Origin: Clostridia bacterium
GTDB taxonomy: Bacteria; Bacillota; Clostridia; Monoglobales; Firm-18
Assembly (NCBI GenBank): GCA_045576675.1
Contig: JAZNGX010000176.1
Span: 3,892-67,891, forward strand
Reading direction: 5' to 3'
Length of the DNA: 64,000 bases
Shown here: in pieces, positions 7,916 through 45,473 of the stretch
Position numbering within the stretch: the stretch's first letter is position 1
Layout: each line of letters opens with the position of its first letter
Notes under the pieces: generated by a model
Told to the model about the DNA's origin: nothing
What the model saw: only the letters and a program-made list of their open reading frames with translations
Databases searched by the model: none
Position numbers and translations under genes: made by a program

Positions 7916-8018
7916 ACCCCTATTTTGAAACTATTATACATAATTTTTCGGTTTTTGTACTATTTATAATACCACATTATATGTTATAATACAAGAAAAA
8001 TATGAAAGAGGTTTTGTT

Positions 8019-14335: not shown

Positions 14336-14406
14336 ATAAATCTCTCCCCTGATAATATTAACGGCTCTTTTGCGTGTATTAAACGCACGCAAAAGAACCA
14401 TTTGAA

Positions 14407-17133: not shown

Positions 17134-17155
17134 TGTGTGTTTCCTCCTCTCGCCA

Positions 17156-24187: not shown

Positions 24188-24275
24188 TATATCATTCCTT
24201 TCATTAATGAACCCCGTATGCCTTAAACTTAAAAATTTGCACACTTTTAATTTGTCGTTCTCGTAAGGCTATTAT

Positions 24276-25166: not shown

Positions 25167-25184
25167 CGTATTAAGCTCCCCTCC

Positions 25185-26102
25185 TTACTGCTCAAGCTTT
25201 TTCTGAAGCTTAAAATATACAATAGTAAGCCCAATCAGAATAACAAATGTAATTACACCTACAACCATTGAATTTTCAGGCTTGAAATACGTAAATGCGT
25301 ATCTGTAACCTAACAAATTAAGTGAAACAGATGCATCATTAGGACCACCGTCTGTCATTGCCATTGGTTCATTCATAATCTGGAAGATACCAACAATCTG
25401 ATTTACAAACTGCAAAAGTGCAAAGCCTGAAATATGAGGCAATGTAATATTTTTTGTTTTCTGCCAAAGATTTGCACCGTCAATAGTTGCCGCCTCATAA
25501 AGCTCATTATTAACGCTTTGCAGGCTGGCAAGATAGAATATTGAGGTACCACCCATACCTCTCCATGTCATTGAAATAACAATAAGAGGTATGGTAAGGC
25601 TTGCATTCTGAAGCCATTGTGAACCTTCAACACCAATTTTTGCAAGCAACATATTAAATACGCCGCCGTCTCCTGGCAAATACAAAAAGTACCAAAGAAG
25701 CGAAGCTGCAACAGATGGCACCATTGCCGGAAAATAAACCGTAAATTTGAAAAACGATTTGATATGTACCATCTCATTAATCATAATAGCCAGTATAATC
25801 GGCATAGGATAACCTATTATAAGTGACCATACAACATAAGAAACAGTGTTTTTTAACGTTTTTAAAAATGTTGAATTGCTTATTACTTCGATGTAGTTTT
25901 TAATGCCTACAAATTCAACAGGGTCATAACCCTTCAATTGATAGAATGAAAGTCTGAAGCCTGTAAAAATAGGTTTCCAAACCAACACGAAAAACAAGAA
26001 CAACGCTGGCAACATTATAAGCCACGATACAATATCGTGCTTACTTAGCTTAAAATTGCTTAAACGTTTGCGATTGATTCTTATATTCTTTTCTGTCTGC
26101 AC
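25185..26102 (-). CDS. Carbohydrate ABC transporter permease (MalF/CUT1-type)
   Basis: 305 aa. EAA loop LYEAATIDGANLWQKTKNITLPHISG. Confidence 0.9.
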   Translation of the reverse strand: MQTEKNIRINRKRLSNFKLSKHDIVSWLIMLPALFLFFVLVWKPIFTGFRLSFYQLKGYDPVEFVGIKNYIEVISNSTFLKTLKNTVSYVVWSLIIGYPMPIILAIMINEMVHIKSFFKFTVYFPAMVPSVAASLLWYFLYLPGDGGVFNMLLAKIGVEGSQWLQNASLTIPLIVISMTWRGMGGTSIFYLASLQSVNNELYEAATIDGANLWQKTKNITLPHISGFALLQFVNQIVGIFQIMNEPMAMTDGGPNDASVSLNLLGYRYAFTYFKPENSMVVGVITFVILIGLTIVYFKLQKKLEQ

Positions 26103-26136
26103 AACAAACGCCCCTTTTATGTACTACTTATTTTAA

Positions 26137-27519: not shown

Positions 27520-27532
27520 AATATTTCCCCCA

Positions 27533-28429
27533 TTATAATATATCATTAATATATGGCTTTACTGCGTCTTTTAAATATGCTTTCTCTTCATCGCTTAATT
27601 CCTTAAACGGTGCTCTTGCTTTGCCGAAGTCAAATCCCATCATATCAAGTATTGCTTTTTCACCCTGCATTACGCCAACCTTGCATAATGCAGCGATTAT
27701 AGCATTGGCTTCACGCTGAACAGCCTGTGCTTCTGCTATTTTGTTTTCGTCAAACAATTTATTTATTTCTATAAATTTTTCTGCCATAAAGTTGTATGTG
27801 CTTCCTATTCCGCCGTCAGCCTTCATTGAAAGACCTGCTAAAAACATTTCATCAAAGCCGTTATAAACAAGCTTGTCAGGAAAAGCTGCTTTAAATTGCT
27901 CTAAAGCAAAATAGTCGTTAGATGTATGCTTTACGCCGCAGAATCTGTCATCACTTAAAAATTCACTGATGTTATCAACTGATAGATTAACGCCCGAAAA
28001 GTTCGGGAAGTTGTATATAAGCATAGGAAGATTTACGCTTCCTGCAATGTCAAAATAATACTTTTTAATTTCAGCAAAGCCAAACTTGTAATAGAATGGT
28101 GCAACTGCTGAAACCATTTCGTAGCTTGCGTTTTGCGCATACTGTGCAAGCTCGATTGCCTGATCTGTGCTGATGCATCCAACATGTGCAATTAGCTTAC
28201 ACTTGCCCTTTGCTTCGTCAGCAACAATATCATATACTGCTTTTCTTTCATCAAAGCTTAACAAAAACGCTTCTGCTGTGCTGCCGCCTACATAAAAACC
28301 TGCAACACCTTTTTTAAGATTGTATTTTACTAAATCACGAAGCACTTTCTCGTTGATTTTGTTGTTTTCATCAAACGGTGTTAAAAGTGCCGGATAAATC
28401 CCCTTGAATTCTTTCATATTAAAGCTCAT
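27533..28429 (-). CDS. N-acetylneuraminate-lyase-like class I aldolase (DapA/NAL family)
   Basis: Start moved to ATG 28429 (the GTG in the track lies inside RBS AAGGTGG). Motifs GGSTAEAF, LIYNFPNFSG and GVKHTSNDYFALEQFK parallel NanA GSTGE / YNIP / Schiff-base Lys K-x-T-S-x-D. Exact substrate not provable by eye. Confidence 0.7.
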   Translation of the reverse strand: MSFNMKEFKGIYPALLTPFDENNKINEKVLRDLVKYNLKKGVAGFYVGGSTAEAFLLSFDERKAVYDIVADEAKGKCKLIAHVGCISTDQAIELAQYAQNASYEMVSAVAPFYYKFGFAEIKKYYFDIAGSVNLPMLIYNFPNFSGVNLSVDNISEFLSDDRFCGVKHTSNDYFALEQFKAAFPDKLVYNGFDEMFLAGLSMKADGGIGSTYNFMAEKFIEINKLFDENKIAEAQAVQREANAIIAALCKVGVMQGEKAILDMMGFDFGKARAPFKELSDEEKAYLKDAVKPYINDIL

Positions 28430-28474
28430 ATTAATTACCACCTTAGTTTGAATGTTTTCCCTTATAACTGCAAT

Positions 28475-28545: not shown

Positions 28546-30810
28546 TTATTCGCTTATTGCTATCGGACGAAGACCTGTTAAGCTGTTCCAAACAAACATC
28601 TTTGCAGAACCGCCTGCTTTACCTGTCGGAACTGTTACAGATACAGGAGCTTCTTTTGCAACGCCTGCTTCAAAACCTGTTACAGGTACTACGCTTAAAG
28701 TAACCAGATTGTTTGCACTGTCATAGTATGCAATCATAACTACAGCTGACTGAGCTGCATCGTTACCCATCAACATTGCTGTACCGTTGATTACGCTGCC
28801 TTCATTTGTACCATTAGTATAAGAAACAACCGCTTCTGTTGCATAAACCTTTGGATAAACAATTAAATCAGCAGCCTTTGTAGCTGTTCCTGTTACGCTG
28901 TTCTCTGTCTTTGTGATGGTTGTTGTCAATGTTGTATCAACAATCGGCCAACCTGCTTCAGGAACAACGATAGTACCGTTTTCTGAAATTACATTTTCAA
29001 CATCTGTAGCATATGTAATTGTAGCACCACTTGGTGTAAGTGTCGGCAATGTAACATCACTTGTAACATTGCTGATATCTGCTAAACCAACTGCTTCAAA
29101 ATCAACAATTGCCTGCATTAAGCTTTCTGAAGCTGCAGTAGGTAATGTATAAGCATAGCCTGCAGGAACGATAGCCATAGCATCAACTGCATTAACATAC
29201 ATGTCATTGTTAGAACGTGCTTCGTCACTTCTTAATGTTAATGTATGAACTTTGTCGCTTGTTAAATTAACATTTGGAATTTTGTTCATATGTAAGTCCT
29301 GCATAGCAGCACGACCCCATGTATATATTGTAGTAACTTTAGCAGCTGCAGCAGAAGTAGCAAATCCCGGAGCGCTAACAATTGCAGCAAAATCAGAACC
29401 ATCTATTGAATACTTAAGAGGACTTACGTGAGTTGCTGTACCTCTGTATGAAATAATGTAAATATCATAGTTGCCTGATTTCTGTGGTTTTAACTTATAT
29501 GTTAAATCAGGTGCAGTTGTAAACTCCTGTGTTCCTGTTAAAGCATACTGATTCATAAACCATGAACCGCTTGCATAACCACGTGTAAAGGTAGATACAG
29601 CTGCTGAATTATCAGCAAGTGTCAAATTGAAATTATATCCGGCAGGGTCAGATGTTGTCTTATCAGCATAATGCTCTGCCTCAATCCATAGTGTTCCGTT
29701 TGAATTGTTGTATGGTAATCCGTTTGTAGTTGTTGGGCGCCAGTTCCAGCTTGAAGGAACGATAGCAATCTTATCAACACCTGCTACCCAGTAAGCGTTA
29801 TCAGATGAACGTGGGTCAAAATCAAGTCTTAATGTATGTTCACCTTTTTTGATTTCAGCTGTTGGCATTTTGTGCCAGCCTGCATCACCACGGTTTCCAT
29901 CAATGTAATACATTTGTGGGAAAGTATATTTGCCGCCATTGTAGTCACCTATGTTTTTACCTGAATAGTAGCCGTAAACAGGTGCTCCGGCATCAAGTGT
30001 GTATGTGTAATCTGACTGCCATTTATATGCAGGTGTTGAACCTAATACCCAAACATCATAAACATCATCAGCTGCTATATTGAATTTATATTCAGCATAA
30101 CATCCGTTAGCAGCATAATTTCCGAATACGTGAAGCAATGTATTGCCTGATACAGAAGTTGTGCTGATGTTACCATTTGCATAAGCTTCAGCTTCAAGCA
30201 TTACATAAGATGCTTCACCAACTGATGGTCTTGTATACTGGTCAACAGGAGACCAATACCAATCTTTAGGAACAACTATAAAGCAGTCGATAACAGCTAT
30301 ATATGCACCATCTGATGAACGTGGGAACACATTGATTTTTAATGAATGTGTATCAGCTGTTAAATTAACTGTGTTAAGTTTACACCATTCAGGCCAGTTG
30401 TTTGCAAGTGAATTATACAAACCGGGATTTCCTGATGACTTAACAGCGTGAGCTGTTTCTGTACCAATTTCATCATCTAACTGATATGTATAAGATGAAA
30501 GCCAATTTTTCTCAGGATTGATTGAAAGCATCCAGATATCATATTCGCCTTCAGCTGCAATGTCAAAATCATATTCAACATATGCATCTGTCAATTCTTT
30601 AGCACCATTTAAATAAGCAACACTTACGTCGCTTGAGGCATCATGGCTTGCTTCTGCATAGTAATGCGTACCAAGGTTACCTGCTTTGAAGTTCTCTGCC
30701 TCAAACCAAACATAAGTTTGCTCTGCATCAGCAGCAACGATTGTCACCAAAGACAACAACATTGTCATTGCACAAAGAAGTGCAATAAGTTTTTTAATAC
30801 TTTTTTTCAT
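28546..30810 (-). CDS. Secreted protein: three tandem W-x-EAE modules, Ig-like domain, C-terminal beta-sandwich (putative glycan-binding)
   Basis: 754 aa. Signal peptide MKKSIKKLIALLCAMTMLLSLVTIVAA. Modules start at YVWFEAENF, YVMLEAEAY and TLWIEAEHY, each ending in ..D.[IF].[IV]VP..W.W.P. Collinear with aa 1-745 of the 1576-aa protein. Confidence 0.65.
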   Translation of the reverse strand: MKKSIKKLIALLCAMTMLLSLVTIVAADAEQTYVWFEAENFKAGNLGTHYYAEASHDASSDVSVAYLNGAKELTDAYVEYDFDIAAEGEYDIWMLSINPEKNWLSSYTYQLDDEIGTETAHAVKSSGNPGLYNSLANNWPEWCKLNTVNLTADTHSLKINVFPRSSDGAYIAVIDCFIVVPKDWYWSPVDQYTRPSVGEASYVMLEAEAYANGNISTTSVSGNTLLHVFGNYAANGCYAEYKFNIAADDVYDVWVLGSTPAYKWQSDYTYTLDAGAPVYGYYSGKNIGDYNGGKYTFPQMYYIDGNRGDAGWHKMPTAEIKKGEHTLRLDFDPRSSDNAYWVAGVDKIAIVPSSWNWRPTTTNGLPYNNSNGTLWIEAEHYADKTTSDPAGYNFNLTLADNSAAVSTFTRGYASGSWFMNQYALTGTQEFTTAPDLTYKLKPQKSGNYDIYIISYRGTATHVSPLKYSIDGSDFAAIVSAPGFATSAAAAKVTTIYTWGRAAMQDLHMNKIPNVNLTSDKVHTLTLRSDEARSNNDMYVNAVDAMAIVPAGYAYTLPTAASESLMQAIVDFEAVGLADISNVTSDVTLPTLTPSGATITYATDVENVISENGTIVVPEAGWPIVDTTLTTTITKTENSVTGTATKAADLIVYPKVYATEAVVSYTNGTNEGSVINGTAMLMGNDAAQSAVVMIAYYDSANNLVTLSVVPVTGFEAGVAKEAPVSVTVPTGKAGGSAKMFVWNSLTGLRPIAISE

Positions 30811-30841: not shown

Positions 30842-30925
30842 TTGCTTAATATAATTTTATCACAATCACGTAATTTGGGTAAAGTACATAAGTTTGCGAT
30901 TTGGTTTGTTATCTTGCTTTTATTT
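30842..30925 (-). promoter_or_regulatory. Conserved upstream element, copy A (promoter plus putative operator of the 754-aa gene)
   Basis: About 85-90% identical over ~84 bp to 38812-38895. Minus-strand TG-A-TAAAAT extended -10 (30854-30862) and TTACCC -35 (30877-30882). Conserved distal block AACCAAATCGCAAA..TGTACTTTACC. Confidence 0.5.
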
Positions 30926-32702
30926 TTCTTTCAATAGACTCAAAGCCGTTAACAGAAAGCTTAACATTTACTCCGTCCTTATACTGGTCCTTTGCAAGCT
31001 TAACCACCTTTGAAGTTCTTCCAAGCATAATTACATCACCGGGAAGAAGAGTTGTGTGAGATGTTAAATATTCTAAAACACGCTCTGCACTTGGTGAATA
31101 TTCAGCAAAATCAACAGCGATATCGCCAACACCCTCAACTGTCAATGTACCTTTAAGGTCAGCTATATTAACCTCCTTAACCTCGCCGATTGTGTTATAG
31201 CCGTCACCCCATCTGCCATATACAAGACCAATACCGTTTTCCTGCGGTGTTGCAGGCTCTATTATCTGATTCTTAATTGAAAGGTCTGTTACAGAAACTA
31301 TTGGTGCAAAGCCTAAAATATAGTCCTTTGCATTAGCCTGAGTTGCCCCTTTGGTAATCTTTTTAATAACCAATGCCATTTCTGCACTGATTTCAATATC
31401 AGTTGCTCTTGGTGACATTAACAGCTCGTCACGGCTGTCAGTAATCTGACCTCTTGGACCGCAAAGAAGTCTTGGTGAATCTGCCTTCGTCCATCCCAAT
31501 GTTTCGTTTACGTCCTTAAAGTTACCGTAGCATGTCCAAACATTCTGAATATTTGAAATATCGAATGAATCTATTTCTGTATAACCCTTATCAATGCAAT
31601 CCTGAACAGCAGGAACAAGCGGAATTTGTTTTTGTTTTTCACTGCGGTTATCACCCAGCTCTTCAGGATAGTAAACATGAGCAGATAATTCGCCGACATA
31701 CTCGATTTCAGCTCCGATTGAACCATTTTCTCCAAAAGGCATCATTTCAACATCTGCCGCAATTCCATCTGTACCAACTGTACCCATATGAATAACATCA
31801 CCGGGATGCAAGGTCATAAACTGTGAGAAGAAGTGAGCTGTTCTTTCAACACCAATCATATAGCCTGCTGTGCTTGAACGGTCACGCTTGCCGCCGTTTG
31901 TTTTTGTCCATACCAAAAGGTCATAAGGGTTACCAACCTCTTCCTTTGTTACGATGTACGGACCACAGATACAATGTGAGTCTGCACCCTTACCAATCCA
32001 CGACCATGTTGCATCTGCAAACCAATCGGGATATTTTTCAAGCAGCTTTGCATATTCACCGTTACATTCCTTATCAAAAGCAGGATAATAATCTGCTATC
32101 TGTGCATCATAAACAATTGTATATCCTGCAATATAGTCATAAATCTCATCAATCGGAACGTTATAGCACTCTTTACCTATTACTATTGCAAGCTCTACAT
32201 TACCACCAGGATGACCAATGAAGGTTTCACCGTGTCCCACAACAGATGTCATAGCACGCTGATGACCCTGCGGCAAAATATTAACGTGAGTTCTCGGTGG
32301 ATTTGCTCTGAAGAAAGACGGACTGTTCTGAACAAGTCCCAAAAACAGTCTTGAATCAGGCACAGGAACTCTCATATGTACATCTTCAACAGGATGACCA
32401 CAGCACGAAATAAAATAGGGGTCAGACTGCTTTATATAGTGCTTAACGAAGGTTTCAAAGCGTCTTAAAATATCCATTCCCTCGTCGCCCATTTCCAAAA
32501 ACTCCTTCATTGTTTTTGGCCAGTTGCCCTCAGGCATAAATGTGGGAAGGCACTTAAAATATCCGTTTGTACCATTTGTTATAAGTCTGATAGCCTTTTC
32601 GCATTTCTCAGGCTCGTAAACCCATTCCTTTCCGTCCTCTTCGTTTAAAAGCACGAATCCCCAAGTTTGTTTTCCGTCATACTCAAATGTTGCAAGTTTC
32701 AT
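30909..32702 (-). CDS. Tandem fumarylacetoacetate-hydrolase (FAH) family protein
   Basis: 597 aa. N-terminus MKLATFEYDGKQTWGFV is typical of FAH-family proteins. Two FAH-like halves (..GNVELAIVIGKE..GDVIHMGT.. and ..DIEISAEMALVIKK..GDVIMLGR..). Confidence 0.65.
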   Translation of the reverse strand: MKLATFEYDGKQTWGFVLLNEEDGKEWVYEPEKCEKAIRLITNGTNGYFKCLPTFMPEGNWPKTMKEFLEMGDEGMDILRRFETFVKHYIKQSDPYFISCCGHPVEDVHMRVPVPDSRLFLGLVQNSPSFFRANPPRTHVNILPQGHQRAMTSVVGHGETFIGHPGGNVELAIVIGKECYNVPIDEIYDYIAGYTIVYDAQIADYYPAFDKECNGEYAKLLEKYPDWFADATWSWIGKGADSHCICGPYIVTKEEVGNPYDLLVWTKTNGGKRDRSSTAGYMIGVERTAHFFSQFMTLHPGDVIHMGTVGTDGIAADVEMMPFGENGSIGAEIEYVGELSAHVYYPEELGDNRSEKQKQIPLVPAVQDCIDKGYTEIDSFDISNIQNVWTCYGNFKDVNETLGWTKADSPRLLCGPRGQITDSRDELLMSPRATDIEISAEMALVIKKITKGATQANAKDYILGFAPIVSVTDLSIKNQIIEPATPQENGIGLVYGRWGDGYNTIGEVKEVNIADLKGTLTVEGVGDIAVDFAEYSPSAERVLEYLTSHTTLLPGDVIMLGRTSKVVKLAKDQYKDGVNVKLSVNGFESIERKIKAR

Positions 32703-34048: not shown

Positions 34049-37000
34049 TTATAACCCCAAATCACTTATATATTTTTCGCATACAGACATTGTTTTCCAA
34101 TCATTTGAAGCAATTATATAAAGATTTCCGTTACGTATTGCCCACGGCTTTCCGTCAGCAGTTTTATAAAGCACATCAGCCCCGTCAACAGCGTTTAAAA
34201 TTTGTTTTGTTACGCCATTCTCTATAACGTATTCATCAGTATAATACTTATCTATTTCGGGTAAATCGCCAATATTGTCCCTGAAGCCAAAGAACACAAT
34301 GTTTTTACCCTCTCTGTTTTCTCTGACAGCCTCACAAAGCTTTTCACCAAACAACTTTGTTGCCGGCTTCTTTTCCATAAATGTCATAAGCAATTCTGTA
34401 TCCACAAGCGGATTGGATGTTGGTATAATTCTTCTTGCCCCGCTATGCGGATCAAACTCTATTGAAAAGTTTTCAATATCATCAGAATAACCAACTGCTG
34501 TATATCTGTTCGGTCTTGTCCAATAATTTGTTGCGGCAGGATAATAAAAGCCTGTTTCAAACTGAGTTTTATTATCCTTAAGCTTTGCTACGTACTCATC
34601 TGTGTGCAAAATGTCATTAAACGATTTTAACCATGGATACATTTTTGGGTTTGCTTCATACGAATAACCCTCGTGTATCTGCACGCCTGCTTCTTCACCG
34701 TTAAGCAAGAAATCAAATATACCCTTAGCACCACCGTTATACAATTCAGTAAAATGCTCGTGCATATATTCTTCGCTTGGATAACCATGAATTTCTTGTT
34801 CATATTTCACATTGATGTTCGACTCTGTTTCAGTTTCTGTAACTATCTGCCACATAGTTTTTACTGCACTTTCAGCTTCACCATATGCTATACTCTGCTT
34901 ATATTTTGCACCCCCGTAGATATCACCATATGCTTCAGCACCTACGCCGTCAAAACCACCATAAGTTACATTGTTTACAAAATAGTCGCTGTAAATACTT
35001 GCTTCCTTATAAACAACCGGAACATCGTTATACTTCTTTACGTTATCAGCCAGCAAGTTCGAAAACTCTGTAAATTTGTCTGATTTAAAATACCAAAAAT
35101 CATTCCACGCATGGCCGTTATATGTATCCGCCTGATAAACTCTGTTTGTGCTGTCAAGCGCAAAATATGTGTAATACTCGCCGTTACTATCCTTTGGAGA
35201 AGTATAAATAGGTATAATCTGCGAAGCTGCTTCAAAGCTTGGTATAGCAGGCTTTGTAAGCCAGGCTTCGTTTAGTGCATCAATTGTGCCATATTTTTCT
35301 TCAAGCCACTGTGCATACTCTGCATTGGTATTATCCGACACAAAGCGTGCATTTTCAGCATCGTTATGTACGCCTGTTTCATTATAGCAAAGGTCAACCC
35401 ACAATCTGAAGCCGTCACCCATTTCCAATGCATCAGCAAATTTTGCAACAGCCTCGTATGACTCATTATCGTAATCTATATAGTTACTCCAAGCTCTGCC
35501 GCGATCGCTGTAAATTTTTGGAGTGAAAGCCACGGTACAGGTTCTTCCCGACGGAATAGTAACATCTGCTGACATTGTATATGTTCCGTTACCATTGGCT
35601 TTAACAGTTACATCACCATTTTGTACGTGAATTGATGTTTCCTCATTTATAACTATGAACTTACCACCCACAACACTTGGTGGTGTTACAACCGTTGTTG
35701 CAAAATTCGACGGATTGATTGTAACACTTACAGTTCCGCTTTCGGTTACTCCTGTAACACGTACATTTGATGTGTTGTCTCTTGCAGCTCTAACGTAATA
35801 TGAATAAAGAGGCTTACCGCCATTTTGACGTTCGTTAAGCTGAATGCCATATTTAAAGCCCATTTCATCAAGTTTATCTACAAGTCTTTGCCACGCTTCC
35901 ATAGGAATATCGGTACCCAAGTTTTGCGGATTTATATACAAATCCGTCACACCCTCAGCCTTAAATCTTTCAAGCATTGCAACATCCTTTGCAAAAACCT
36001 CTTCATTTCCCGCAGGGTCGGTTGGACTATATTTATCAAGATAGCTGAAAAGTGACATTCCGCCCATAGGTATATACGGCTCACCATCCCATATAAGTGT
36101 ATGTGCCTGATTTACATACCAGAAATGATACAAGCCTGTTTTTCGTGCAATATATGTACCATATGACATCGGCTTATATGCAACATCATAATTTATATCG
36201 TTATCAAGGTCAATGTTAATATTTTCCGACATTTTCGTGTTTAGCTTATTAAGCTGAACACGAAGCTCATATTCACCCGAAGGGATTCCGTCTGTTACAG
36301 AAAACTCAAATTCCGCTTCAATCTTTTCACCGGCAAAGTAAGAAGACGTAGGAACAACAGCATCGGTTTCAACAACATCCCAAAGCTCTTTGCCTTTCCA
36401 AAGTGTAAGACTTATTTCACTGTCAAAATCAACCTCATTTTCAAGAACAACTTCAATCTCGCTCGAATATGTTTCGTTGCCGTTTATAACCTCAGGCAAT
36501 TCAATACCGCTGACATTTGCAATCACCGATACATCCTCATACTCGCCAGTATCAGCAATCGGTGCCATATTTCCGTTCCACAAAAACATCTTTATTACTC
36601 CGCCATCCGTGTCATAAGGCAGCATCAGGTCAGTTGTAACAGCAACGCTTTCACCTTCGGGAACATCAACAAGCTCAGACTTGTTTATACTTACAAGCCT
36701 GCCTGAATTGTCATAATACGCAAGAAGAGCAATTGCATTCTGCTCACCATTACTGTTTAAAAGTGTTGCACTTGCATTTACAACCTCACTATTGCGAAGC
36801 TTGCTTCTGATTTTTGAACCGTCGGCATATGTAAGCTTAACATCATATGCATACAAATCGGGTATTACAGTAACCTCGTACTCCTTTGTACCAACTGCAC
36901 TTAAACTTCCGATTGTTTTTTCAACCGTTGCAGTAAGTATAGCCTTACCAATCTTACCATTATCATTATGAACAATCTTTCCATCTGATGTTATTACAGA

Positions 37001-38779
37001 GGGATTGCTTGTTGACCAGCTTATTGAAGAACCTGTTACTGTTGTTGCCGGAAGTGCAATATCATCACGAAGCATATTTGTATTAATACCAAGTGTTGCT
37101 GCTTCAAAATCAGCAAGACGCTTCAGATAATCATTATTAAAGCTTGAAGGCAATATACCAGTTCCTGTAGGAACAAACGCAATAAAGTCAAACATACAAA
37201 GATATATATCACCCATAGAACGCAAATCGCCGCTTCTGAACTTAAGTGTATTCACACCATAGCTTGAAAGCTTAACATTTGGTATCTTATTCCATCTTAA
37301 ATTGGTAGTATTATCATATGTTGCGACTCCGCTTGAGCTTTCGTACCCCTCCGCAAGCCTTGCATATTGGTAATCAGAGCCGTTAAGAGAATATTCATAA
37401 TGACTTACGTGTCCATCAGATGCACCTGTTGATACAATGTACATATCATAAGCACCTGACTTTGTCGGTCTGAAATTATATATGATTTCAGGAATTTCTG
37501 TGTATGCAGTTGTAGTTCTGTAAAACTGCTTCAGATAATATCTGTTACTCATAAGCATGGATGTGCCGGAACTGTTTGAAGAAGAGCCGTCAGCACATAC
37601 TATACTCATTCCATAACCCGGGCTTTCGTTTAAAACACCTTTGTTATTAACTGAAAAATGCTCCGCCTCCAACCATATACCATTATACTCATTTTTTTGC
37701 GGAACAGAATTTTGGTCTCCCGGTATCCACTGCCAGCTTTGCGGCACGATTGCTATTTTATTTATAAGTGACAGATAGTCTCCCTGACTTCTCGGGTCAA
37801 TTGTAAGCTTTAAATTATGCTCACCCTGTGCAATAATCTGTGATGGAAATCTATGCCACGAAATTGCTCCAAGTGTGGAATGATTAGTAACAGCAACCGG
37901 CTTATAAGCCGAGTTGTTAAAGTTGCCCTGATAACCTGTTCCCAGATTTTTTCCTGAATAGTTACCATAAACAGCATCACCATCATCTATTGTCAGGCTA
38001 TAGTCAGAAATCCATGTCAAATCAGGTCTGTTGCCATATACCCAGATATCGTAAATATCCGAAGCCTTGGAAGTAAAAGAATAATCATACGAAGCCGTAA
38101 CGCCCGTACCCTTTAAATATACATCTGTGCTTATAAGCGTGTAATCAGAATCAGGAATCCCCGGCTTTGTTACGGAATCAGTTGGTGTCCAGTTATAATA
38201 AGACGGCACAATTACAATTGCGTCCATTGCAAAGATGTAACCACCAAGCCCACGCTCCTCTGGATATATGCTGATAGTATGACGCTGTGCCGAAAGCGTT
38301 GAAGTTGGCATTTTATTCCAAACCATAGCTGCACTACCCAATGCCGAATGTGTATTATACAAGGTTGTCGGCTGATATGGAGAGTTGTTCTGATTGCCGA
38401 CATATCCGATGTTCATACCTGAACTGATGCAATATTCAGCCTTTCCGCCATCTATCTTATATGTAAAGTCTGAAACCCATGTTAAATCAGGGCGTGTTGA
38501 CAACACCCAGATATCATAATCACCTGCTTCGTTTATTTCAAACGTATAATCTGCATGATAGTTTTCTGCTCCTGTTGGCGATACATTTCTTATAAACGCA
38601 GCAATACCATCGCTTGCCTTGTCATATGAAATAGAGCTTTTGTATGTACTTGTGGCATCCATTTTTTCTGCTTCAAGCCATACGTAACCCACCGAAGCTT
38701 CTGCAGCCAAAACAGGCAACCCGGGCAAAAGCAAAGTCATAGCACATAAAAAAGCTACGATTTTGTTAACTATTTTCAT
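34049..38779 (-). CDS. Giant secreted protein: three W-x-EAE modules, Ig-like domain, beta-sandwich, Ig-like domain, C-terminal GH42/clan GH-A-like domain. Putative novel glycoside hydrolase
   Basis: 1576 aa. Signal peptide MKIVNKIVAFLCAMTLLLPGLPVLAAEA. Modules at YVWLEAEKMD, DYTLISTDVY.. and GIWLEAEHF. C-terminal domain has WVDLCYNETG..EYAQWLEEKYGTIDALNEAW..IVTETETE. No SLH. Confidence 0.7.
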   Translation of the reverse strand: MKIVNKIVAFLCAMTLLLPGLPVLAAEASVGYVWLEAEKMDATSTYKSSISYDKASDGIAAFIRNVSPTGAENYHADYTFEINEAGDYDIWVLSTRPDLTWVSDFTYKIDGGKAEYCISSGMNIGYVGNQNNSPYQPTTLYNTHSALGSAAMVWNKMPTSTLSAQRHTISIYPEERGLGGYIFAMDAIVIVPSYYNWTPTDSVTKPGIPDSDYTLISTDVYLKGTGVTASYDYSFTSKASDIYDIWVYGNRPDLTWISDYSLTIDDGDAVYGNYSGKNLGTGYQGNFNNSAYKPVAVTNHSTLGAISWHRFPSQIIAQGEHNLKLTIDPRSQGDYLSLINKIAIVPQSWQWIPGDQNSVPQKNEYNGIWLEAEHFSVNNKGVLNESPGYGMSIVCADGSSSNSSGTSMLMSNRYYLKQFYRTTTAYTEIPEIIYNFRPTKSGAYDMYIVSTGASDGHVSHYEYSLNGSDYQYARLAEGYESSSGVATYDNTTNLRWNKIPNVKLSSYGVNTLKFRSGDLRSMGDIYLCMFDFIAFVPTGTGILPSSFNNDYLKRLADFEAATLGINTNMLRDDIALPATTVTGSSISWSTSNPSVITSDGKIVHNDNGKIGKAILTATVEKTIGSLSAVGTKEYEVTVIPDLYAYDVKLTYADGSKIRSKLRNSEVVNASATLLNSNGEQNAIALLAYYDNSGRLVSINKSELVDVPEGESVAVTTDLMLPYDTDGGVIKMFLWNGNMAPIADTGEYEDVSVIANVSGIELPEVINGNETYSSEIEVVLENEVDFDSEISLTLWKGKELWDVVETDAVVPTSSYFAGEKIEAEFEFSVTDGIPSGEYELRVQLNKLNTKMSENINIDLDNDINYDVAYKPMSYGTYIARKTGLYHFWYVNQAHTLIWDGEPYIPMGGMSLFSYLDKYSPTDPAGNEEVFAKDVAMLERFKAEGVTDLYINPQNLGTDIPMEAWQRLVDKLDEMGFKYGIQLNERQNGGKPLYSYYVRAARDNTSNVRVTGVTESGTVSVTINPSNFATTVVTPPSVVGGKFIVINEETSIHVQNGDVTVKANGNGTYTMSADVTIPSGRTCTVAFTPKIYSDRGRAWSNYIDYDNESYEAVAKFADALEMGDGFRLWVDLCYNETGVHNDAENARFVSDNTNAEYAQWLEEKYGTIDALNEAWLTKPAIPSFEAASQIIPIYTSPKDSNGEYYTYFALDSTNRVYQADTYNGHAWNDFWYFKSDKFTEFSNLLADNVKKYNDVPVVYKEASIYSDYFVNNVTYGGFDGVGAEAYGDIYGGAKYKQSIAYGEAESAVKTMWQIVTETETESNINVKYEQEIHGYPSEEYMHEHFTELYNGGAKGIFDFLLNGEEAGVQIHEGYSYEANPKMYPWLKSFNDILHTDEYVAKLKDNKTQFETGFYYPAATNYWTRPNRYTAVGYSDDIENFSIEFDPHSGARRIIPTSNPLVDTELLMTFMEKKPATKLFGEKLCEAVRENREGKNIVFFGFRDNIGDLPEIDKYYTDEYVIENGVTKQILNAVDGADVLYKTADGKPWAIRNGNLYIIASNDWKTMSVCEKYISDLGL

Positions 38780-38978: not shown

Positions 38979-39974
38979 ATGTTTCAGGGAATAAAAAACA
39001 AAATTGAAATATTTATCATTTTTGCTGCGGCATTTTTAATAACACTTGTCACGATAAGCATCGGTTCAACCTTCCGCATATCTTTAACCAACGATTTTAT
39101 CAATCACTCAGTTCAGTCTGCTGAGCAGCTTAATAATAATATAAAGCTTAATCTGACTTCGTTTGAAACAGTTGCAAATTTGCTTACACATAACACAACC
39201 ATTATCGAAGCTATGTCAACCGACAAATATAATATTGATGTAATCCCAATACTGGATAGTGTTGCGATGACAAATCTAAACATTGCAGGTACGTGCCTTT
39301 ATGGTGTTAATGGTATCAACTATTATTCAAGCACTGTTCAGGCTCCTCCGCCACTTGATTTTATTCTTAAAAACGAGATTCCGGACGATTTTGTTCAATC
39401 CGCAGACAGCACAACCTGGATATTGCGTGAGCATACCATAAAGGAATACAAGAATTACACAGGGTATTACAGAAGTGCTAACGGCTTGTTTTCTTTTGTA
39501 AGCAAGCTCAGAAATGAAAGCAATGAGCTTTTAGGATATTTTCTAATTGATATCCCGATTAATAACATATACAGCTTTCCGATGAATAAAGATAACATTT
39601 TTTTAAACAATACAAGTATATATATTTTAAACGAACAAAACAAAATAGCTCACACCTTCAAACAGGCAAATAATAATGACGAAGCCTTCAATCCTGAGCT
39701 TATCACCAACAAAGATATCACTTTGCCGATACGCCTTAAAAATGCTGTTGCAACAGTAAGTGAGCTTGAAAACACCAATACAAAAACCGTTGTATATACT
39801 TCGTTCAGATACATAAAAAACAAGTTCTATGAGCTTATTGTTATACTGTTTATTTTAGATTCGTTGTTTATACTGCTTGTAATACTTTTGGTTAAGCCTT
39901 TATCAAAAAGTATATATAAGCCATTACAGGCACTTTATTCCAAAATGAAAGGTATTCACAAGCTGATACAATAA
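38979..39974 (+). CDS. Membrane protein resembling only the sensing half (TM1, extracytoplasmic domain, TM2) of a YesM-type histidine kinase
   Basis: 331 aa. TM1 IEIFIIFAAAFLITLVTISIG, ~260-aa extracytoplasmic region, TM2 LIVILFILDSLFILLVILLV. Ends 25 aa later (KPLSKSIYKPLQALYSKM), where a HAMP helix would begin. No H-box or ATPase. Confidence 0.5.
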   Translation: MFQGIKNKIEIFIIFAAAFLITLVTISIGSTFRISLTNDFINHSVQSAEQLNNNIKLNLTSFETVANLLTHNTTIIEAMSTDKYNIDVIPILDSVAMTNLNIAGTCLYGVNGINYYSSTVQAPPPLDFILKNEIPDDFVQSADSTTWILREHTIKEYKNYTGYYRSANGLFSFVSKLRNESNELLGYFLIDIPINNIYSFPMNKDNIFLNNTSIYILNEQNKIAHTFKQANNNDEAFNPELITNKDITLPIRLKNAVATVSELENTNTKTVVYTSFRYIKNKFYELIVILFILDSLFILLVILLVKPLSKSIYKPLQALYSKMKGIHKLIQ

Positions 39975-40001
39975 TACTCTTAATAAAGGGAGCGTAACCT
40001 G

Positions 40002-41597
40002 ATGTTAACAATCATAGTAGTTGATGACGAGCATTTAACACATCTCGGATTAAAAATGGCAATCGACTGGGAAAAATACGGATTTCAGATTATAGGCGAC
40101 GCCAAGACCGGTGAAGAAGGTCTTGAACTCGCTCTTAAGTTACGCCCCGATATTATAATCACTGATGTTTGTATGCCCAATATGGATGGACTTGAAATGA
40201 TTTCTCAACTACGTGAGCATAACTTAGACCCTAAAATAATAGTTATCTCCGCCTTCGATGAATTCCATTACGTTAAACGAGCATTGGAAAGCAAAGCAAT
40301 TGCATATCTTTTAAAACCAATCAAAGATGCAGAGCTTATTAACGTGCTTTTAGAACAGAAAAAGATTATTGAACGCGAAAAGAAAATGAAAAGCGAAATC
40401 GAGGATTATCACGAAAACCTTGATATCTTAAAAGAGCACTTTTTTATTGACCTGTTCAATGGTAAAAGTATTGATGAAGAAACCCTTGACAAAAAGGTTA
40501 AAGCCTTTGACATTCCGGAAAACAAAAATTTTTATATAATAAAATTAGGGCTTGATGCATATAAGGAGCTTACAAAAAACAATGAAGCAGACAAGCTGTT
40601 CACATTAAACAAACAGCTTAAAGAAGAAATAAATCAGGCGTTTTCAAACACGGCAGATTTTCATATAAATCTTATAACAGACGAGAAGTATTGCACCGTT
40701 GTACTGTTTACAACACAAAATCTTCAGTTTGTTACAGAGCAGTGCAGAATTTTAAACAAAGCCTTTGGTAGAAACACCCAGAACACAATTTCTATAGGAA
40801 TAAGCAACTGCCGTTACAGTCTTTTGGAAGCACAGGATGCGTATGTTGAAGCAACTGATGCATTAAAATTCAAATCAGTTATGGGGCATAACAGTGTTAT
40901 TCAGGCAGCTGAAATAACTTCAGACCGCCAGCAATCAAATTTAACACAAAGCGAAATCAACAGCATCATTACGTGTATAAAGGCACATAAATCTGAAGAC
41001 ACCTTTATGCATTTAAACGAGCTGTTCAGAAATTTAAAAAACAATAACAGCAGTATTGATTATGTTAAGGAGCTTTGCGTACAGCTTTCTGTTCTTGCAT
41101 ACAACACTTCAAGCGATGGCAGTGACACACAACAAAACGAGCAGCTTATGTACATCAGCTCAGAAATTCACGAGCAGGAAACAATTCAGGACGTTTTTGA
41201 ATGGACAAAGAATTTTATTGACGATATATTAAAAAATCTTATACAATCAGAAGAGCTTGCGTATCGCAAGGATGTAAGACTTGCAATCAATTATATAAAG
41301 AATAATTTTGACAAGCAAATCACTGCAGAACAGGTTGCAAATGAGCTTTTTATAAGCTATCATTACCTGATGCACATTTTCACAAGAGACGTTGGCAAAA
41401 CATTTAATGAATATCTGACTGATTATCGTATTGAGGTAGCAAAGGATATGCTGAAAAACCAAAACATTACAGTTTCAAAGGTCAGCGAAATGATAGGCTA
41501 TAAAAGCCCTAAATACTTTGGCATATTGTTCAAGAAAAAGACAGGCTTAACCCCTAAGGAATATGCAGAACAAAAATACAACAGGGCACAGGAGTAA
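40002..41597 (+). CDS. YesN-like response regulator (REC domain plus AraC-type HTH)
   Basis: 531 aa: IIVVDDE..PDIIITDVCMPNMDGLE..ISAFDEFHYVKRA..LLKP, with C-terminal AraC HTH (ITAEQVANELFISYHYLMHIF..FNEYLTDYR..GYKSPKYFGILFKKKTG). Confidence 0.9.
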   Translation: MLTIIVVDDEHLTHLGLKMAIDWEKYGFQIIGDAKTGEEGLELALKLRPDIIITDVCMPNMDGLEMISQLREHNLDPKIIVISAFDEFHYVKRALESKAIAYLLKPIKDAELINVLLEQKKIIEREKKMKSEIEDYHENLDILKEHFFIDLFNGKSIDEETLDKKVKAFDIPENKNFYIIKLGLDAYKELTKNNEADKLFTLNKQLKEEINQAFSNTADFHINLITDEKYCTVVLFTTQNLQFVTEQCRILNKAFGRNTQNTISIGISNCRYSLLEAQDAYVEATDALKFKSVMGHNSVIQAAEITSDRQQSNLTQSEINSIITCIKAHKSEDTFMHLNELFRNLKNNNSSIDYVKELCVQLSVLAYNTSSDGSDTQQNEQLMYISSEIHEQETIQDVFEWTKNFIDDILKNLIQSEELAYRKDVRLAINYIKNNFDKQITAEQVANELFISYHYLMHIFTRDVGKTFNEYLTDYRIEVAKDMLKNQNITVSKVSEMIGYKSPKYFGILFKKKTGLTPKEYAEQKYNRAQE

Positions 41598-41601
41598 AAA
41601 A

Positions 41602-43347
41602 ATGAATATCTTAAACACACTTATTCCATTTTTAAGACAGTTTAAAATCAGTATTCGTTTGTTGGTAATTCTTTTGATATGTACGCTTATTCCGTCACTT
41701 GTTATTTTCAGAATTGCAGACTTTTACTGCAGTAATATTACAAACAAATACATCAGTGACTATATTGATTTAACAGACAGCGAGATAGAATCACGTATAA
41801 ATATGATTGCAAACTCGCTTGGTATTCTTTCACTGGATATAATTCAGAACAAGGAAATACCATTGATTATCAACGGTGATTATGAGTTTTCTCATAAACA
41901 GGAAAAGCTTGACGGTGTGCTTTCAACCCTTATCAGTGATAAGGTATTTATAAGCGGTATTTCTATAATCACAGTTAATAATGAAGCGTACTTTTATTCC
42001 TGTGATAAAAATTTTGTATTAAACGATTATCATATTATCAATAATGCTGATGACACAACGAGTATTAATTATATCGAAACAATTAAAGATGCCAATAATA
42101 ATTCACACCTCACCTTTGGTATACAGTTCAGAAATTTTTATACAGGCTACCATTTAGGCACACTGTTGATTTATGTTAACGAACAGGTTCTTCACGATAT
42201 TTACGGAAAATATGTATCAGACCAGCATCTTATATACGTGTTAGACCAGAACGATATTATTATTTCGTGCAGTGACACATCAAAGCTTGGCTCAACATTT
42301 ATTGATATAGCATTGGTTAAAAACAATACCTTTGAATTTGAAGACAAAAAGTACATAACCACTGTTCGTAATATGACAAAAAATATAGGCTTTTCATTTG
42401 ACGGCTGGAAAATTCTTCATTACGCATCATACGATACGTTGCTTGATAACACAAATATGTTCACAAAGTATATGACTGTAATACGTAATACTTTTTTATT
42501 ACTTGCGCTTATTTTTTCACTTGTGATATCACGCAGACTCACACGTTCAATTTCAGTTCTTCAGCGTAAGATGGTCAATATTGAAAAAGAACGAAGCTCA
42601 CCGCCTGTTCACCTTTTAAAAGGGAACGATGAATTGTGGGAGCTTGAAAAGATTTTCAATGATATGATAGGGCAGATTAACAGCCTAATCGAAAAAAACA
42701 ATGAAGAAAAAGAAGAAAAAAGAAAGCTTGAATTCAAGGCTATGCAGGCACAGATTAATCCGCATTTTATTTATAATACACTGGATGCTATCACGTGGCT
42801 TGCAAAAATCAATGACAAGCCTGAAATCGTTGACCTTTCAATTGCACTTTCAGACTTCTTCCGCATCAGTCTTCAAAACGGGGAAAACTTTATAACAATA
42901 AAAGACGAGCTGGCACACGTTAAGGCTTATATTCTTATTCAGCAAACGCGTTTTCAGGGAAAATTCACCGTTGAATATGATGTTGATGAGGATATTATGA
43001 ATTACAAAATGCCCAAAATTATATTACAGCCGCTTGTGGAAAATGCAATTATTCACGGAATTGCACCGAGCAAAAATCCGGGTTTAATCCAGATTATAGG
43101 GTATCGTGACGGCAACAATATTCGTTTTGAGGTTATAGATAACGGGGTAGGCTTCGTTGTTGACAATCCTGATAACAAAAACAACAGCATCAACGGCAGA
43201 AGCGGTTACGGAACGAAAAACATAAGGCAACGTCTTATGCTTGAATACGGCGACGGATATGATTTAAAATTCCACAGTAAGCCTGATATTGGAACACGTG
43301 TGGAGGTTACAATAAAAATCCAAGAGGACAAGGAGACATCAGTATGA
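41602..43347 (+). CDS. YesM-like sensor histidine kinase (PF06580-type His_kinase plus HATPase_c)
   Basis: Start moved to ATG 41602 (RBS GGAG), 581 aa. Two TM segments flank a ~270-aa sensor. H-box LEFKAMQAQINPHFIYNTL. N-box LQPLVENAIIHG. G-box DNGVGF..GYGTKN. Confidence 0.9.
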   Translation: MNILNTLIPFLRQFKISIRLLVILLICTLIPSLVIFRIADFYCSNITNKYISDYIDLTDSEIESRINMIANSLGILSLDIIQNKEIPLIINGDYEFSHKQEKLDGVLSTLISDKVFISGISIITVNNEAYFYSCDKNFVLNDYHIINNADDTTSINYIETIKDANNNSHLTFGIQFRNFYTGYHLGTLLIYVNEQVLHDIYGKYVSDQHLIYVLDQNDIIISCSDTSKLGSTFIDIALVKNNTFEFEDKKYITTVRNMTKNIGFSFDGWKILHYASYDTLLDNTNMFTKYMTVIRNTFLLLALIFSLVISRRLTRSISVLQRKMVNIEKERSSPPVHLLKGNDELWELEKIFNDMIGQINSLIEKNNEEKEEKRKLEFKAMQAQINPHFIYNTLDAITWLAKINDKPEIVDLSIALSDFFRISLQNGENFITIKDELAHVKAYILIQQTRFQGKFTVEYDVDEDIMNYKMPKIILQPLVENAIIHGIAPSKNPGLIQIIGYRDGNNIRFEVIDNGVGFVVDNPDNKNNSINGRSGYGTKNIRQRLMLEYGDGYDLKFHSKPDIGTRVEVTIKIQEDKETSV

Positions 43348-45473
43348 ACAGAGCAAAATGGATAACACTCGGGTCATTACCTTCAATGATGCCGGCAAAT
43401 TATGATATCTTAAATGGTAGTATATATTTTAGAAAACAGTTTTCACTGAAATATGATATAAAAAGCGTAAAGCTTTCAATATGTGCATTAGGTCAGGGAG
43501 AATATTTTGTCAACGGCAAACCTGTAGCAGACGAAGTGCTCCCTACACCATTTACCAGATTTGATGCAAGAGTTATTTACAACGTATATGATATTACCCA
43601 TCTTGTAAACATAGGCGAAAACGCAATAGGCGTTCACGTCGGCAACGGATTTTATAACGACAATATGTCAGTATGGAATGACATTATGACAGACTGGAAG
43701 GACAATCCGAAGCTTGCTGCAGCAATTGAAATCAGCTATCAATCAGGCGTAACGGAGGTTATACGTACAGATAAAACCTGGCGTTGCACAGAGGGTTGTG
43801 CTATATACAACCACGTCAAGCAGGGTGAAATATGCGATGCAAGACTTCGTCAGAATGGCTATGACACAGTTGATTTCGATGATTCAGGATGGGAAAATGC
43901 CGCATTAACAAACGAACCGGGAGGAATACTTGAAACTGCTGATGTTCCACCGGTTCGTGTGATACGCACACTAAAGCCTGTAAGATTTGAAAATGACATT
44001 TATGATTTCGGTGAAAACATAAGCGGTTGGGTAAAAATCAAAGTGCACGGAAAGCCCGGTCAGGAAATAAGAATTTTATATGATGAAAGCTTTGAGCAAT
44101 TCCGTCAGATGCGTGGTGCAGACACCTGCTTTGCGTTTGCACAAAGAGAAAACAAGCCTGTTGCAAACGAAGACATATTTATATGCAGCGGTATTGAAGA
44201 AGAATTCCGTCCCTCCTTCTGCTACCACGGTTTTCAGTATGCAAAATTAGAAAACGCACCCGACAATGTAGAAATCGTTGCAGAGGTTGTTCATACCGAC
44301 CTTGAAACCATAGGTACATTTGAGTGCAGCGATGATATGATTAATAAAATACATTTAGCATCAGTAAGAGCAACGCTTGCAAACTTTGTAGGTATGCCAA
44401 CAGACTGCCCGCACAGAGAGCAATTCGGTTGGACCAACGATGCTCAAACCTCAACAGAGCAGGTGCTTATGAACTTTGATGCAAAACGCTCTTATGCAAA
44501 ATGGCTACGCGATTTCAAGGACGCACAGCGTCCCAGCGGTCAGCTCCCCGGTATTATCCCATGTACTGGTTGGGGCTACAACTGGGGGCAAGGTCCGGGA
44601 TTTGGTTGTGCAATTATTATTATTCCGTATAACATCTATATTAACACAGGCGACACCAAAATTCTTGCCGATATGTGGGAGAATATGGTTAAATACTTAG
44701 GCTGTCTGGAACGTATGAGCGATAATTATATAGTTGATTACGGTCTTGGCGACTGGGTTCCTGTTCACCAACCCGCATGCCCACGCGCTATTATCGACAC
44801 TGCATATTTTTATAACGACTGTGTTAAAATGGCTGAAATAGCAAAGCTTATCGGCAAAGACAGCACCGAATGGTCTGAAAAGGCCGCAAAGATAAAATCT
44901 GCTTTCAGAAAAGAATTTATCGGTAAGCCCGAGCTTGAAACATACCAGACATATTTTGCATGTATGATATTTCAGGGACTGCTTGAAGAAAACGAAATCC
45001 CCGAATATGCAGCAAAGCTTAATCAGCTTGTTATTGATGCAGATTATCATATTGACTGCGGAATGTTCGGAACAAAATATATATTCAGCGCTTTGTCAGA
45101 AAATGGATATACTGACACAATATATAAAATGGTTACAAATCCAACCTTCCCAAGCTATGCATACTGGATACTAAACGGACGCACAACCCTATGCGAAACC
45201 TGGGATATGCAGCAATCACTTAACCATCATTTGTACAGCGAGGTTGATAACTGGATTTACAGATATCTGGGCGGCTTCAGATATTACAAGGACGGTCTTG
45301 TAATAAATCCTGTATATATGGATAATATTGACTTTGTTAAGGCACAGCATAAAGGTATCAGTGTAGTGCGAAACGGCAAAAATGTTACAGTTTCTACCCC
45401 GATTGAGGTTCGTGTTGTAATAGGTAAACACGATGCTGTTGTACAGCCAGGAAAACACGAATTTTGTATGTAA
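43344..45473 (+). CDS. Alpha-L-rhamnosidase, GH78-like, cytoplasmic
   Basis: 709 aa, no signal peptide. N-terminus AKWI..YFRKQFSL, central PTDCPHREQFGWTNDAQ and a six-hairpin C-terminal region match my memory of the bacterial GH78 layout. ATGA overlap with the kinase stop. Confidence 0.8.
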   Translation: MNRAKWITLGSLPSMMPANYDILNGSIYFRKQFSLKYDIKSVKLSICALGQGEYFVNGKPVADEVLPTPFTRFDARVIYNVYDITHLVNIGENAIGVHVGNGFYNDNMSVWNDIMTDWKDNPKLAAAIEISYQSGVTEVIRTDKTWRCTEGCAIYNHVKQGEICDARLRQNGYDTVDFDDSGWENAALTNEPGGILETADVPPVRVIRTLKPVRFENDIYDFGENISGWVKIKVHGKPGQEIRILYDESFEQFRQMRGADTCFAFAQRENKPVANEDIFICSGIEEEFRPSFCYHGFQYAKLENAPDNVEIVAEVVHTDLETIGTFECSDDMINKIHLASVRATLANFVGMPTDCPHREQFGWTNDAQTSTEQVLMNFDAKRSYAKWLRDFKDAQRPSGQLPGIIPCTGWGYNWGQGPGFGCAIIIIPYNIYINTGDTKILADMWENMVKYLGCLERMSDNYIVDYGLGDWVPVHQPACPRAIIDTAYFYNDCVKMAEIAKLIGKDSTEWSEKAAKIKSAFRKEFIGKPELETYQTYFACMIFQGLLEENEIPEYAAKLNQLVIDADYHIDCGMFGTKYIFSALSENGYTDTIYKMVTNPTFPSYAYWILNGRTTLCETWDMQQSLNHHLYSEVDNWIYRYLGGFRYYKDGLVINPVYMDNIDFVKAQHKGISVVRNGKNVTVSTPIEVRVVIGKHDAVVQPGKHEFCM

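Follow-up and report, generated by a model that had tools for sequence, protein, structure and literature searches.

A candidate glycoside hydrolase family, related to GH42 and carrying a β-sandwich within its predicted barrel, is encoded twice at a Clostridia locus

Do two large proteins of a Clostridia bacterium, each carrying a long segment with local resemblance to family GH42 of the glycoside hydrolases (GH), belong to that family or to one that has no name? The window analysed here is a stretch of 64,000 nucleotides (assembly GCA_045576675.1, contig JAZNGX010000176.1, positions 3,892 to 67,891 of the forward strand). According to the list of its open reading frames (ORFs) and their translations, ORF A (34049-38779, minus strand) encodes 1576 residues and ORF B (18939-22976, minus strand) 1345 residues. 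A first-pass annotation had seen in both a candidate new family of GH42/clan GH-A type. This proposal agrees with the predicted fold, with a pair of glutamates aligned to those of GH42, and with the lack of any full-length sequence match to a named family in Pfam, NCBIfam and the PDB; the group remains a candidate. We consider it likely that residues 855-1576 of A and 425-1147 of B are the catalytic units of an uncharacterised family within the GH42-like branch of clan GH-A, predicted to be retaining and extracellular.

Both proteins are multimodular. In ORF A, a signal peptide precedes three modules that may resemble the carbohydrate-binding modules (CBM) of families CBM6 and CBM35, hereafter X modules, followed by an aBig_2 domain, a β-rich domain and the GH42-like catalytic unit. 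In ORF B, a signal peptide, one X module and β-rich domains precede the catalytic unit, which is followed by three SLH cell-wall anchor repeats. The hydrophobic N-terminal leader of each protein is read as the signal peptide, while Pfam places aBig_2 at residues 567-639 of A and three SLH repeats at the C-terminus of B (E 2e-27). The catalytic unit of A (34052-36217, minus strand; 722 residues) is composed of the barrel with its inserted β-sandwich, an α/β domain and a C-terminal β domain. That of B (19536-21704, minus strand) carries the motifs WIDLCFNESS and VVTETN.

BLASTP aligned A and B in a single collinear block, covering residues 759-1576 of A and 322-1147 of B, with 41% identity over 832 residues (613 bits, E reported as 0), a similarity that at the sequence level is far above chance. 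Within an alignment of 21 homologues and both window copies, hereafter alignment A1, the catalytic units alone are 44% identical. Hence the description of the C-terminal half of A and the middle of B as collinear paralogues stands, except for the start of the paralogous region: the real block is about 100 residues longer at the N-terminus and covers the β-rich domain just upstream of the barrel (36200-36532, minus strand; A residues ~750-860). This domain is also part of the family-wide block, and matches to the family profile begin about 200 positions ahead of the barrel. The shared motifs that had been listed are found as written in A, whereas B deviates from them twice, with DIYIN in place of [ND]LYIN and YPTEEYMHDHF in place of YPSEEYMH.

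The catalytic unit of A was modelled with AlphaFold2 from alignment A1, giving a pLDDT of 89.8 and a pTM of 0.91. In the domain numbering used below, adding 854 gives the numbering of protein A. The order of secondary structure elements in the model is that of a (β/α)8 barrel with eight β-α units, followed by an α/β domain and a small β domain. Strands β1 (51-55), β2 (92-95) and β3 (122-126) are followed by an inserted all-β module of eight strands (137-237), then by helix α3 (250-263). Strand β4 (270-274), directly followed by N279-E280, leads to helices of GH42 type (295-319), two hairpins and α4 (370-394). The barrel is completed by β5 (401-405), β6 (424-430), which carries E428 and Y430, β7 (456-463), which carries T460-E461, and β8 (500-506). 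The α/β domain (554-656; 34247-34567, minus strand) occupies, in the model and the Foldseek alignments, the place of the middle domain of GH42, which is the trimerisation domain of these enzymes, and the small β domain spans residues 659-702.

Foldseek comparison of the model with the PDB put GH42 enzymes on top (8ibs, 5xb7, 4oif/5dfa; E 2.6e-14 to 1e-11, TM ~0.5), with alignments of about 780 columns and 11-13% identity. The next matches were the archaeal GH35 enzyme GlmA, a GH164 β-mannosidase, the carrageenan-active 6ptm, the GH167 structure 9whd, a β-amylase and pyruvate kinases. Identity in the best full-length matches (GH42, GlmA and GH164) is 10-13%. The model thus predicts a (β/α)8 barrel of clan GH-A type, to which all the best Foldseek matches belong, within the three-domain architecture of GH42 (barrel, α/β domain, C-terminal β domain). 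Pyruvate kinase, whose B domain is inserted between β3 and α3, is a topological analogue only. It is also a TIM barrel with an inserted β domain, which probably accounts for its presence among the matches, but its chemistry is unrelated, the query-normalised TM-score is only ~0.23 and no homology is claimed.

The inserted module (35483-35830, minus strand) comprises about 115 residues (A residues ~984-1099) between β3 and α3. A β-sandwich-like insertion between the first barrel strands and the Asn-Glu motif had been proposed, and not associated with GH42; the eight modelled strands bear this out, and a β-sandwich at this place is not present in GH42. In the present family, on the other hand, 162 of 163 sequences have a β3-to-α3 segment of 90-137 residues (median 115), so that the insertion characterises the family as a whole and is no peculiarity of one genome. 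A sub-threshold Pfam CBM_4_9 match falls inside it (E 0.004-0.007). The segment from β4 to α4, which contains the GH42-like helices, is 75-122 residues long in the family.

Where, then, would catalysis take place? In A, the predicted acid/base pair N1133-E1134 (WVDLCYNETG; 35378-35383, minus strand) follows β4, and the predicted nucleophile E1315 (IVTETE; 34835-34837, minus strand) lies in β7. The codons of the four glutamates are located as the first-pass annotation had given them: E1134 at 35378-35380 and E1315 at 34835-34837 in A, E699 at 20880-20882 and E879 at 20340-20342 in B. The Asn-Glu pair is invariant across alignment A1. Searches of PDB sequences with phmmer and with the family profile aligned this pair and the segment EYAQWLEEKYGTIDALNEAW with the acid/base region of GH42 crystal-structure sequences, namely NEYG...FQKWCEKKYGTIDAVNDAW in 8ibr and DNEYG...FRGWLEARYGTIEALNEAW in 1kwg; 3tts was also aligned. 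The match to 1kwg (HMMER against the PDB) has an E-value of 9e-7 and pairs N-E with the D-N-E acid/base motif of that enzyme. The GH42 signature that had been cited, N-E followed by W-L-x-x-x-Y-G-T-I-x-x-L-N-x-x-W, was thus found in real GH42 structures (phmmer and hmmsearch; 8ibr, 3tts and 1kwg).

The second glutamate was placed by comparing the family alignment, using hhalign, with four annotated GH42 β-galactosidase genes from plasmid records (656-680 residues). The probability was 95.7% and the E-value 9e-9, over 303 columns by default and 585 with relaxed settings. In the resulting residue map, N279 and E280 correspond to N150 and E151 of a Deinococcus GH42 (the N-E-Y-G acid/base motif) and E461 corresponds to its E307 (the M-E-Q nucleophile motif). 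In addition, Y430 pairs with Y275, W456 with W303, F503 with F345, and W304/W319 with W171/W186. Alignment to GH42 and strand position agree, which supports E1134 (A) and E699 (B) as the predicted acid/base and E1315 (A) and E879 (B) as the predicted nucleophile. The roles first suggested for the Asn-Glu pair and for the Glu of the VTET motif are consequently retained, as is the TIM barrel, which in the model has one Glu just after β4 and the other in β7.

How large is the group? Searching for homologues through a word index gave 25 clusters that are 26-38% identical; source names, where given, were 'hypothetical'. When 1.84 billion representatives were searched exhaustively with the family profile, 541 proteins had E<=1e-3, 447 had E<=1e-10 and 250 had E<=1e-30; among them were B and a copy of A that is nearly identical to it. 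The word-indexed search missed A and B, though both are in the collection, and with 25 clusters against 541 it badly understated the size of the family. Ten representatives, sampled across the matches listed and with E-values down to ~1e-67, have in Pfam only occasional sub-threshold GH42 fragments and accessory domains such as NPCBM, CBM9 and CARDB.

Conservation was counted in an hmmalign alignment of 171 sequences (A, B and homologues P0001-P0169). N279 is kept in 142 of them, E280 in 141, E461 in 149 and the complete set of three in 139. Other positions are also strongly kept: W319 (167), D423 (166), R271 (163), D275 (160), Y430 (150), K404 (145), E428 (142) and K498 (141). In a scan of GTDB representative genomes, members were found in metagenome-assembled genomes of uncultured Clostridia (some labelled Hadza or RUG), in Armatimonadota, Planctomycetota and Lentisphaerota, the latter including the cultured Victivallis vadensis DSM 14823, and on a contig labelled Blautia faecis. 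The scan found no close relative, its best match having 39% identity.

Is the unit simply a divergent member of GH42, to be filed in that family of β-galactosidases and α-L-arabinopyranosidases? GH42 enzymes are its best structural matches. Those of known structure (Thermus A4 β-galactosidase 1KWG, BiBga42A 8IBR, Gan42B 4OIF) have in common with it the three-domain architecture, the N-E acid/base after β4 followed by a W-L-x-x-K-Y-G-T-I-x-x-L-N-x-A-W helix, and the nucleophile Glu on β7. The residues N, E, Y, E, W and F of GH42 are in register in the family, the hhalign probability is high, and Pfam GH42 (PF02449) scores 26-28 bits for A, above its gathering score of 21. However, this Pfam match is confined to profile positions 134-234 of 376, i.e. 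27% coverage, and for B it falls under the gathering score, at 14.8 bits. GH42 sequences of the PDB match over only ~55 residues (phmmer and profile search), identity to GH42 is 11-15% (Foldseek, hhalign), and the Pfam and PDB sequence searches gave no similarity to GH42 across the whole catalytic domain. NCBIfam offers no glycosidase family: A has no match, and the one match of B, over the SLH region, is far under threshold. Hence no Pfam, NCBIfam or PDB sequence family covers the whole unit, in line with the first-pass proposal of a candidate new family. The nucleophile motif is T-E-T in the present family as opposed to M-E-Q in GH42, the ~115-residue β3-α3 β-sandwich is universal in the family and lacking in GH42, and A and B are secreted proteins in which CBM-like or SLH modules accompany the unit; the four plasmid GH42 genes encode 656-680 residues. 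No galactose-catabolism genes occur within the gene cluster. As a calibration, GH148, an accepted separate CAZy family, was compared with GH42 in the same hhalign test and gave a probability of 94.2% (E 1e-7); the present family is therefore about as far from GH42 as GH148 is. Plain GH42 membership was rejected on poor coverage and low identity, and we give it a small chance. GH148 itself needs a closer look. Its endo-β-glucanase EngU has weak local Pfam similarity to GH42 and CBM4_9 and a barrel split by a CBM4, with E239 (INNEN) and E581 (VTEYN) essential (Angelov et al. 2017, PMC5725463), motifs that resemble x-N-E-S/T-G and VTETN of the present family. Both families belong to clan GH-A, share the N-E motif with a W-L-x-k-K-Y-G helix and a V-T-E nucleophile motif, are found mostly in uncultured bacteria and overlap in taxa (Lentisphaerae, Armatimonadota). 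The EngU nucleophile peptide was back-translated from the published E581A primer, and a scan of metagenome contigs for F-x-V-T-E-Y-N-H-x-A-P gave 96 loci, whose ORFs, typically of ~900 residues, bear the EngU hallmarks HHMD and EINNENGL. Against the hidden Markov model (HMM) of the family, 46 full-length ORFs of this type scored only 8-21 bits, always over the same ~45 residues (N-E and the W-L-x-x-K-Y helix); the reverse search reached at most 18 bits, and hhalign gave 67.6% over 55 columns (E 5e-5). Nothing in the family corresponds to EngU peptides from beyond the catalytic motifs. Moreover, the GH148 module lies between β4 and α4, i.e. between both catalytic Glu residues (PMC5725463), whereas that of the present family precedes β4, between β3 and α3. 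With no family-level sequence similarity and a different insertion site, membership in GH148 was rejected and appears highly improbable. The helix N-E plus W-L-x-x-K-Y-G-(T/S)-x-x-x-L-x-x-A-W is common to GH42, GH148 and the present family, and is seen weakly in the β-agarase 4bq2, which we take to be a GH50 enzyme. This would fit a signature inherited from the ancestor of the GH42-like branch within clan GH-A; because it is shared, Pfam GH42 fires locally on all three families.

The unit might also belong to another recent CAZy family that has neither a PDB structure nor a Pfam model, such as GH165 or a family created after 2024. Novelty was judged against Pfam-A, NCBIfam, the PDB and the literature, reports of new clan GH-A families keep appearing, and a group of ~540 representative clusters is big enough to have been noticed before. 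On the other hand, full-text literature searches yielded no characterised member, and the GH42-like or related new families that they returned were only GH148, GH164, GH167 and GH173; the last is presumably represented in the PDB. GH164 was a 'GH42_dist' target at first and only later a family of its own. The GH164 β-mannosidase Bs164 and the archaeal GH35 exo-β-glucosaminidase GlmA have the GH42-type multidomain fold (Foldseek E ~1e-9, TM 0.44-0.49), yet they show no sign of the β3-α3 insertion, and they and GH167 are fold matches only: among all PDB sequences, the family profile matched GH42-type β-galactosidase entries and, weakly and locally, the β-agarase 4bq2 (E 0.025). All named homologues are called 'hypothetical protein'. 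We grant a CAZy family of this kind a small chance. Lastly, the unit could be a catalytically dead, lectin-like scaffold of glycosidase descent that binds glycans. Non-catalytic, putative binding proteins that share its accessory modules abound in the operon, and the N-E...E triad is missing from 32 of the 171 aligned sequences. However, A, B and 139 of the 171 members retain all three catalytic residues together with the GH42-type Tyr, Trp and Phe, and those without the triad are mostly the remotest members, which are likely to be misaligned; a dead scaffold is very unlikely.

Several points weigh against a separate family of active glycosidases, the reading that we nevertheless prefer. Glycosidase activity is a prediction for every member. 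The Glu pair was placed by alignment and by strand position in a model. The 32 triad-less sequences (P0143-P0169 and others, mostly the most distant) may be misaligned, non-catalytic or a mechanistically different subgroup. By its Pfam score, an annotator could lump A into GH42, and CAZy may already list the group, under a number or with its non-classified sequences, which is the chief doubt about novelty. Finally, 93 neighbour ORFs at 22 non-Clostridia loci are mostly LacI-type regulators with no consistent CAZyme theme, which makes any inference of the substrate weak.

If the catalytic assignment is right, the enzymes would cleave a β-(equatorial) glycosidic bond by double displacement with retention, like other members of clan GH-A. 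E1315 of A would attack C1 while E1134 would serve as general acid/base, the equivalents in B being E879 and E699. The inserted β-sandwich would lie over the catalytic face of the barrel, shaping or gating the substrate-binding site. Both enzymes would act outside the cell on a complex polysaccharide, A being directed to it by the CBM-like modules and B anchored to the cell wall, and the products would be imported by an ABC system encoded in the same cluster. Taken together, the data are explained most simply by a system at the cell surface that deals with a complex heteropolysaccharide outside the cell, the two paralogues being its presumed depolymerising or trimming glycosidases.

If confirmed, the assignment would add a GH family of several hundred sequence clusters, spread over gut and rumen Clostridia, Armatimonadota, Planctomycetota and Lentisphaerota. 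The members are not annotated as carbohydrate-active enzymes, those with a source name being called 'hypothetical', so the polysaccharide-degrading capacity of these largely uncultured hosts would be under-counted. It would also provide a second, independent case after GH148 of a GH42-like barrel with an internal β-sandwich, at a different loop, and so help to explain how glycosidases with a TIM barrel acquire modules for substrate binding. The value lies in CAZyme annotation and enzyme discovery: the candidate is a new family, not a new mechanism nor a conceptual surprise, and ordinary retaining hydrolysis of clan GH-A type is expected. A bolder proposal, which we find quite possible without favouring it, is that the unit defines a CAZy family of its own, which would join GH42, GH148 and GH164 as a fourth GH42-like lineage, that the sandwich aids substrate binding, and that the cluster is a Gram-positive polysaccharide-utilisation system of almost entirely undescribed parts. 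Those parts would be the two paralogous enzymes, two secreted non-catalytic X-module proteins and two conserved SLH partners, and their target would be a complex glycan with no degradation pathway described so far.

The X modules that accompany the catalytic units are internal repeats of ~170 residues, with eight copies in the window and the pattern W-[LIF]-E-A-E ... YDIW ... VP-x-x-W-x-W-x-P. In A, three lie in tandem (37112-38701, minus strand; residues 27-205, 206-362 and 363-556). The other copies, all on the minus strand, are in B (22407-22904), in a 754-residue ORF (29086-30732) and in a 417-residue ORF (23570-24112). An AlphaFold2 model built from the eight window sequences has a pLDDT of 64 and a pTM of 0.68, a modest confidence that reflects the small number of copies underlying it. 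With this moderate-confidence model, Foldseek returned CBM6, CBM35, the GH115 C-terminal domain and the MiXBM module (7ehg), with E-values of 1e-6 to 1e-4. The predicted β-sandwich fold may resemble that of these modules (2cdp, 2wz8, 7ehg, 6nps), but X modules are longer and have no Pfam CBM6 or CBM35 match; Pfam gave nothing beyond weak Golvesin_C and GH115_C. A homologue search with a single X module had no matches, which is a limit of the word index. Judging from the model, X may be a new CBM6/35-like family.

Two secreted proteins of the cluster carry X modules without a catalytic unit. The 754-residue protein (28546-30810, minus strand), with three X modules and aBig_2, is homologous to residues 2-742 of A (32% identity over 784 residues, E 5e-123, BLASTP), and its relatives adjoin family members in 13 fetched loci. 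The 417-residue protein (22991-24244, minus strand) has one X module and, by Pfam, aBig_2, and is 49% identical to A residues 10-205. Both are candidate glycan-binding proteins.

All genes from 11785 to 38779 are on the minus strand with short gaps, forming a 27-kb cluster. Starting with A, it encodes an MFS transporter, a 597-residue FAH-family protein, the 754-residue X-module protein, a NanA-type lyase, a solute-binding protein, two ABC permeases, the 417-residue X-module protein, B, SLH proteins of 592 and 908 residues, a 582-residue orphan and an EamA protein. The permeases and the solute-binding protein (Pfam BPD_transp_1 twice and SBP_bac_1) constitute an ABC sugar importer, encoded with the lyase at 24276-28441 (minus strand). 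In other Clostridia loci the recurring core consists of the solute-binding protein, permeases, an X-module protein, a family member, an SLH protein and a protein like that of 908 residues. At some other loci, family members are found beside GH38, GH106 and GH2-like genes and GDSL esterases. These neighbours, together with the GH78 gene and the NanA-type lyase described below, give a loose hint of a heteropolysaccharide that contains rhamnose or mannose and may be acidic.

The two SLH proteins (14407-18934, minus strand) are encoded directly downstream of B and match only SLH in Pfam. Homologues of the pair were found by tblastn at the same position in 7-9 Clostridia loci, which marks them as conserved partners of B-type enzymes. 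For the 908-residue protein there are 87 homologue clusters; its consensus is β-rich and shows no evident catalytic motif, and a scaffold of S-layer type is a possible role. No catalytic Pfam family was found in the 582-, 908- and 754-residue neighbours, and for the last two there was no PDB sequence match either. The 582-residue ORF (12653-14401, minus strand) has no Pfam or NCBIfam match, no tblastn relative in the fetched loci and no obvious signal peptide.

The lyase (27533-28441, minus strand) is assigned as a NanA-type N-acetylneuraminate lyase by the NCBIfam equivalog model NF003164 (366.5 bits, cutoff 281), while TIGR00683 gives 313.9 bits, under its cutoff of 382. Its gene overlaps that of the solute-binding protein by 14 bases and is not conserved in homologous loci; of the cluster genes examined, none was identified as encoding a sialidase, NanK or NanE. 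The 597-residue FAH-family protein (30909-32702, minus strand) is about twice the usual size. Its FAH domain (residues 132-343) has weak similarity to 2,4-didehydro-3-deoxy-L-rhamnonate hydrolase, and ~250 residues of its C-terminal part have no assignment.

Divergent from A, on the plus strand (38979-45473), Pfam identifies a dCache protein, an AraC-type response regulator, a histidine kinase and a GH78 α-L-rhamnosidase. For the latter, NCBIfam rhamnosidase models reach E 7e-100, far below their cutoffs. The first three genes (38979-43347, plus strand) form a sensor set made of the dCache-domain protein (331 residues), the AraC-type response regulator and a His_kinase/HAMP sensor, and are a plausible regulator of the cluster. 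At 7064-11009 are encoded a glycyl-radical enzyme of the PFL2-3 subfamily (696 residues), its activase and a RhaS-like AraC regulator. We suspect that this enzyme is of the diol-dehydratase type, linked to rhamnose or fucose fermentation; it matches its model only from profile position 154 and appears short at the N-terminus.

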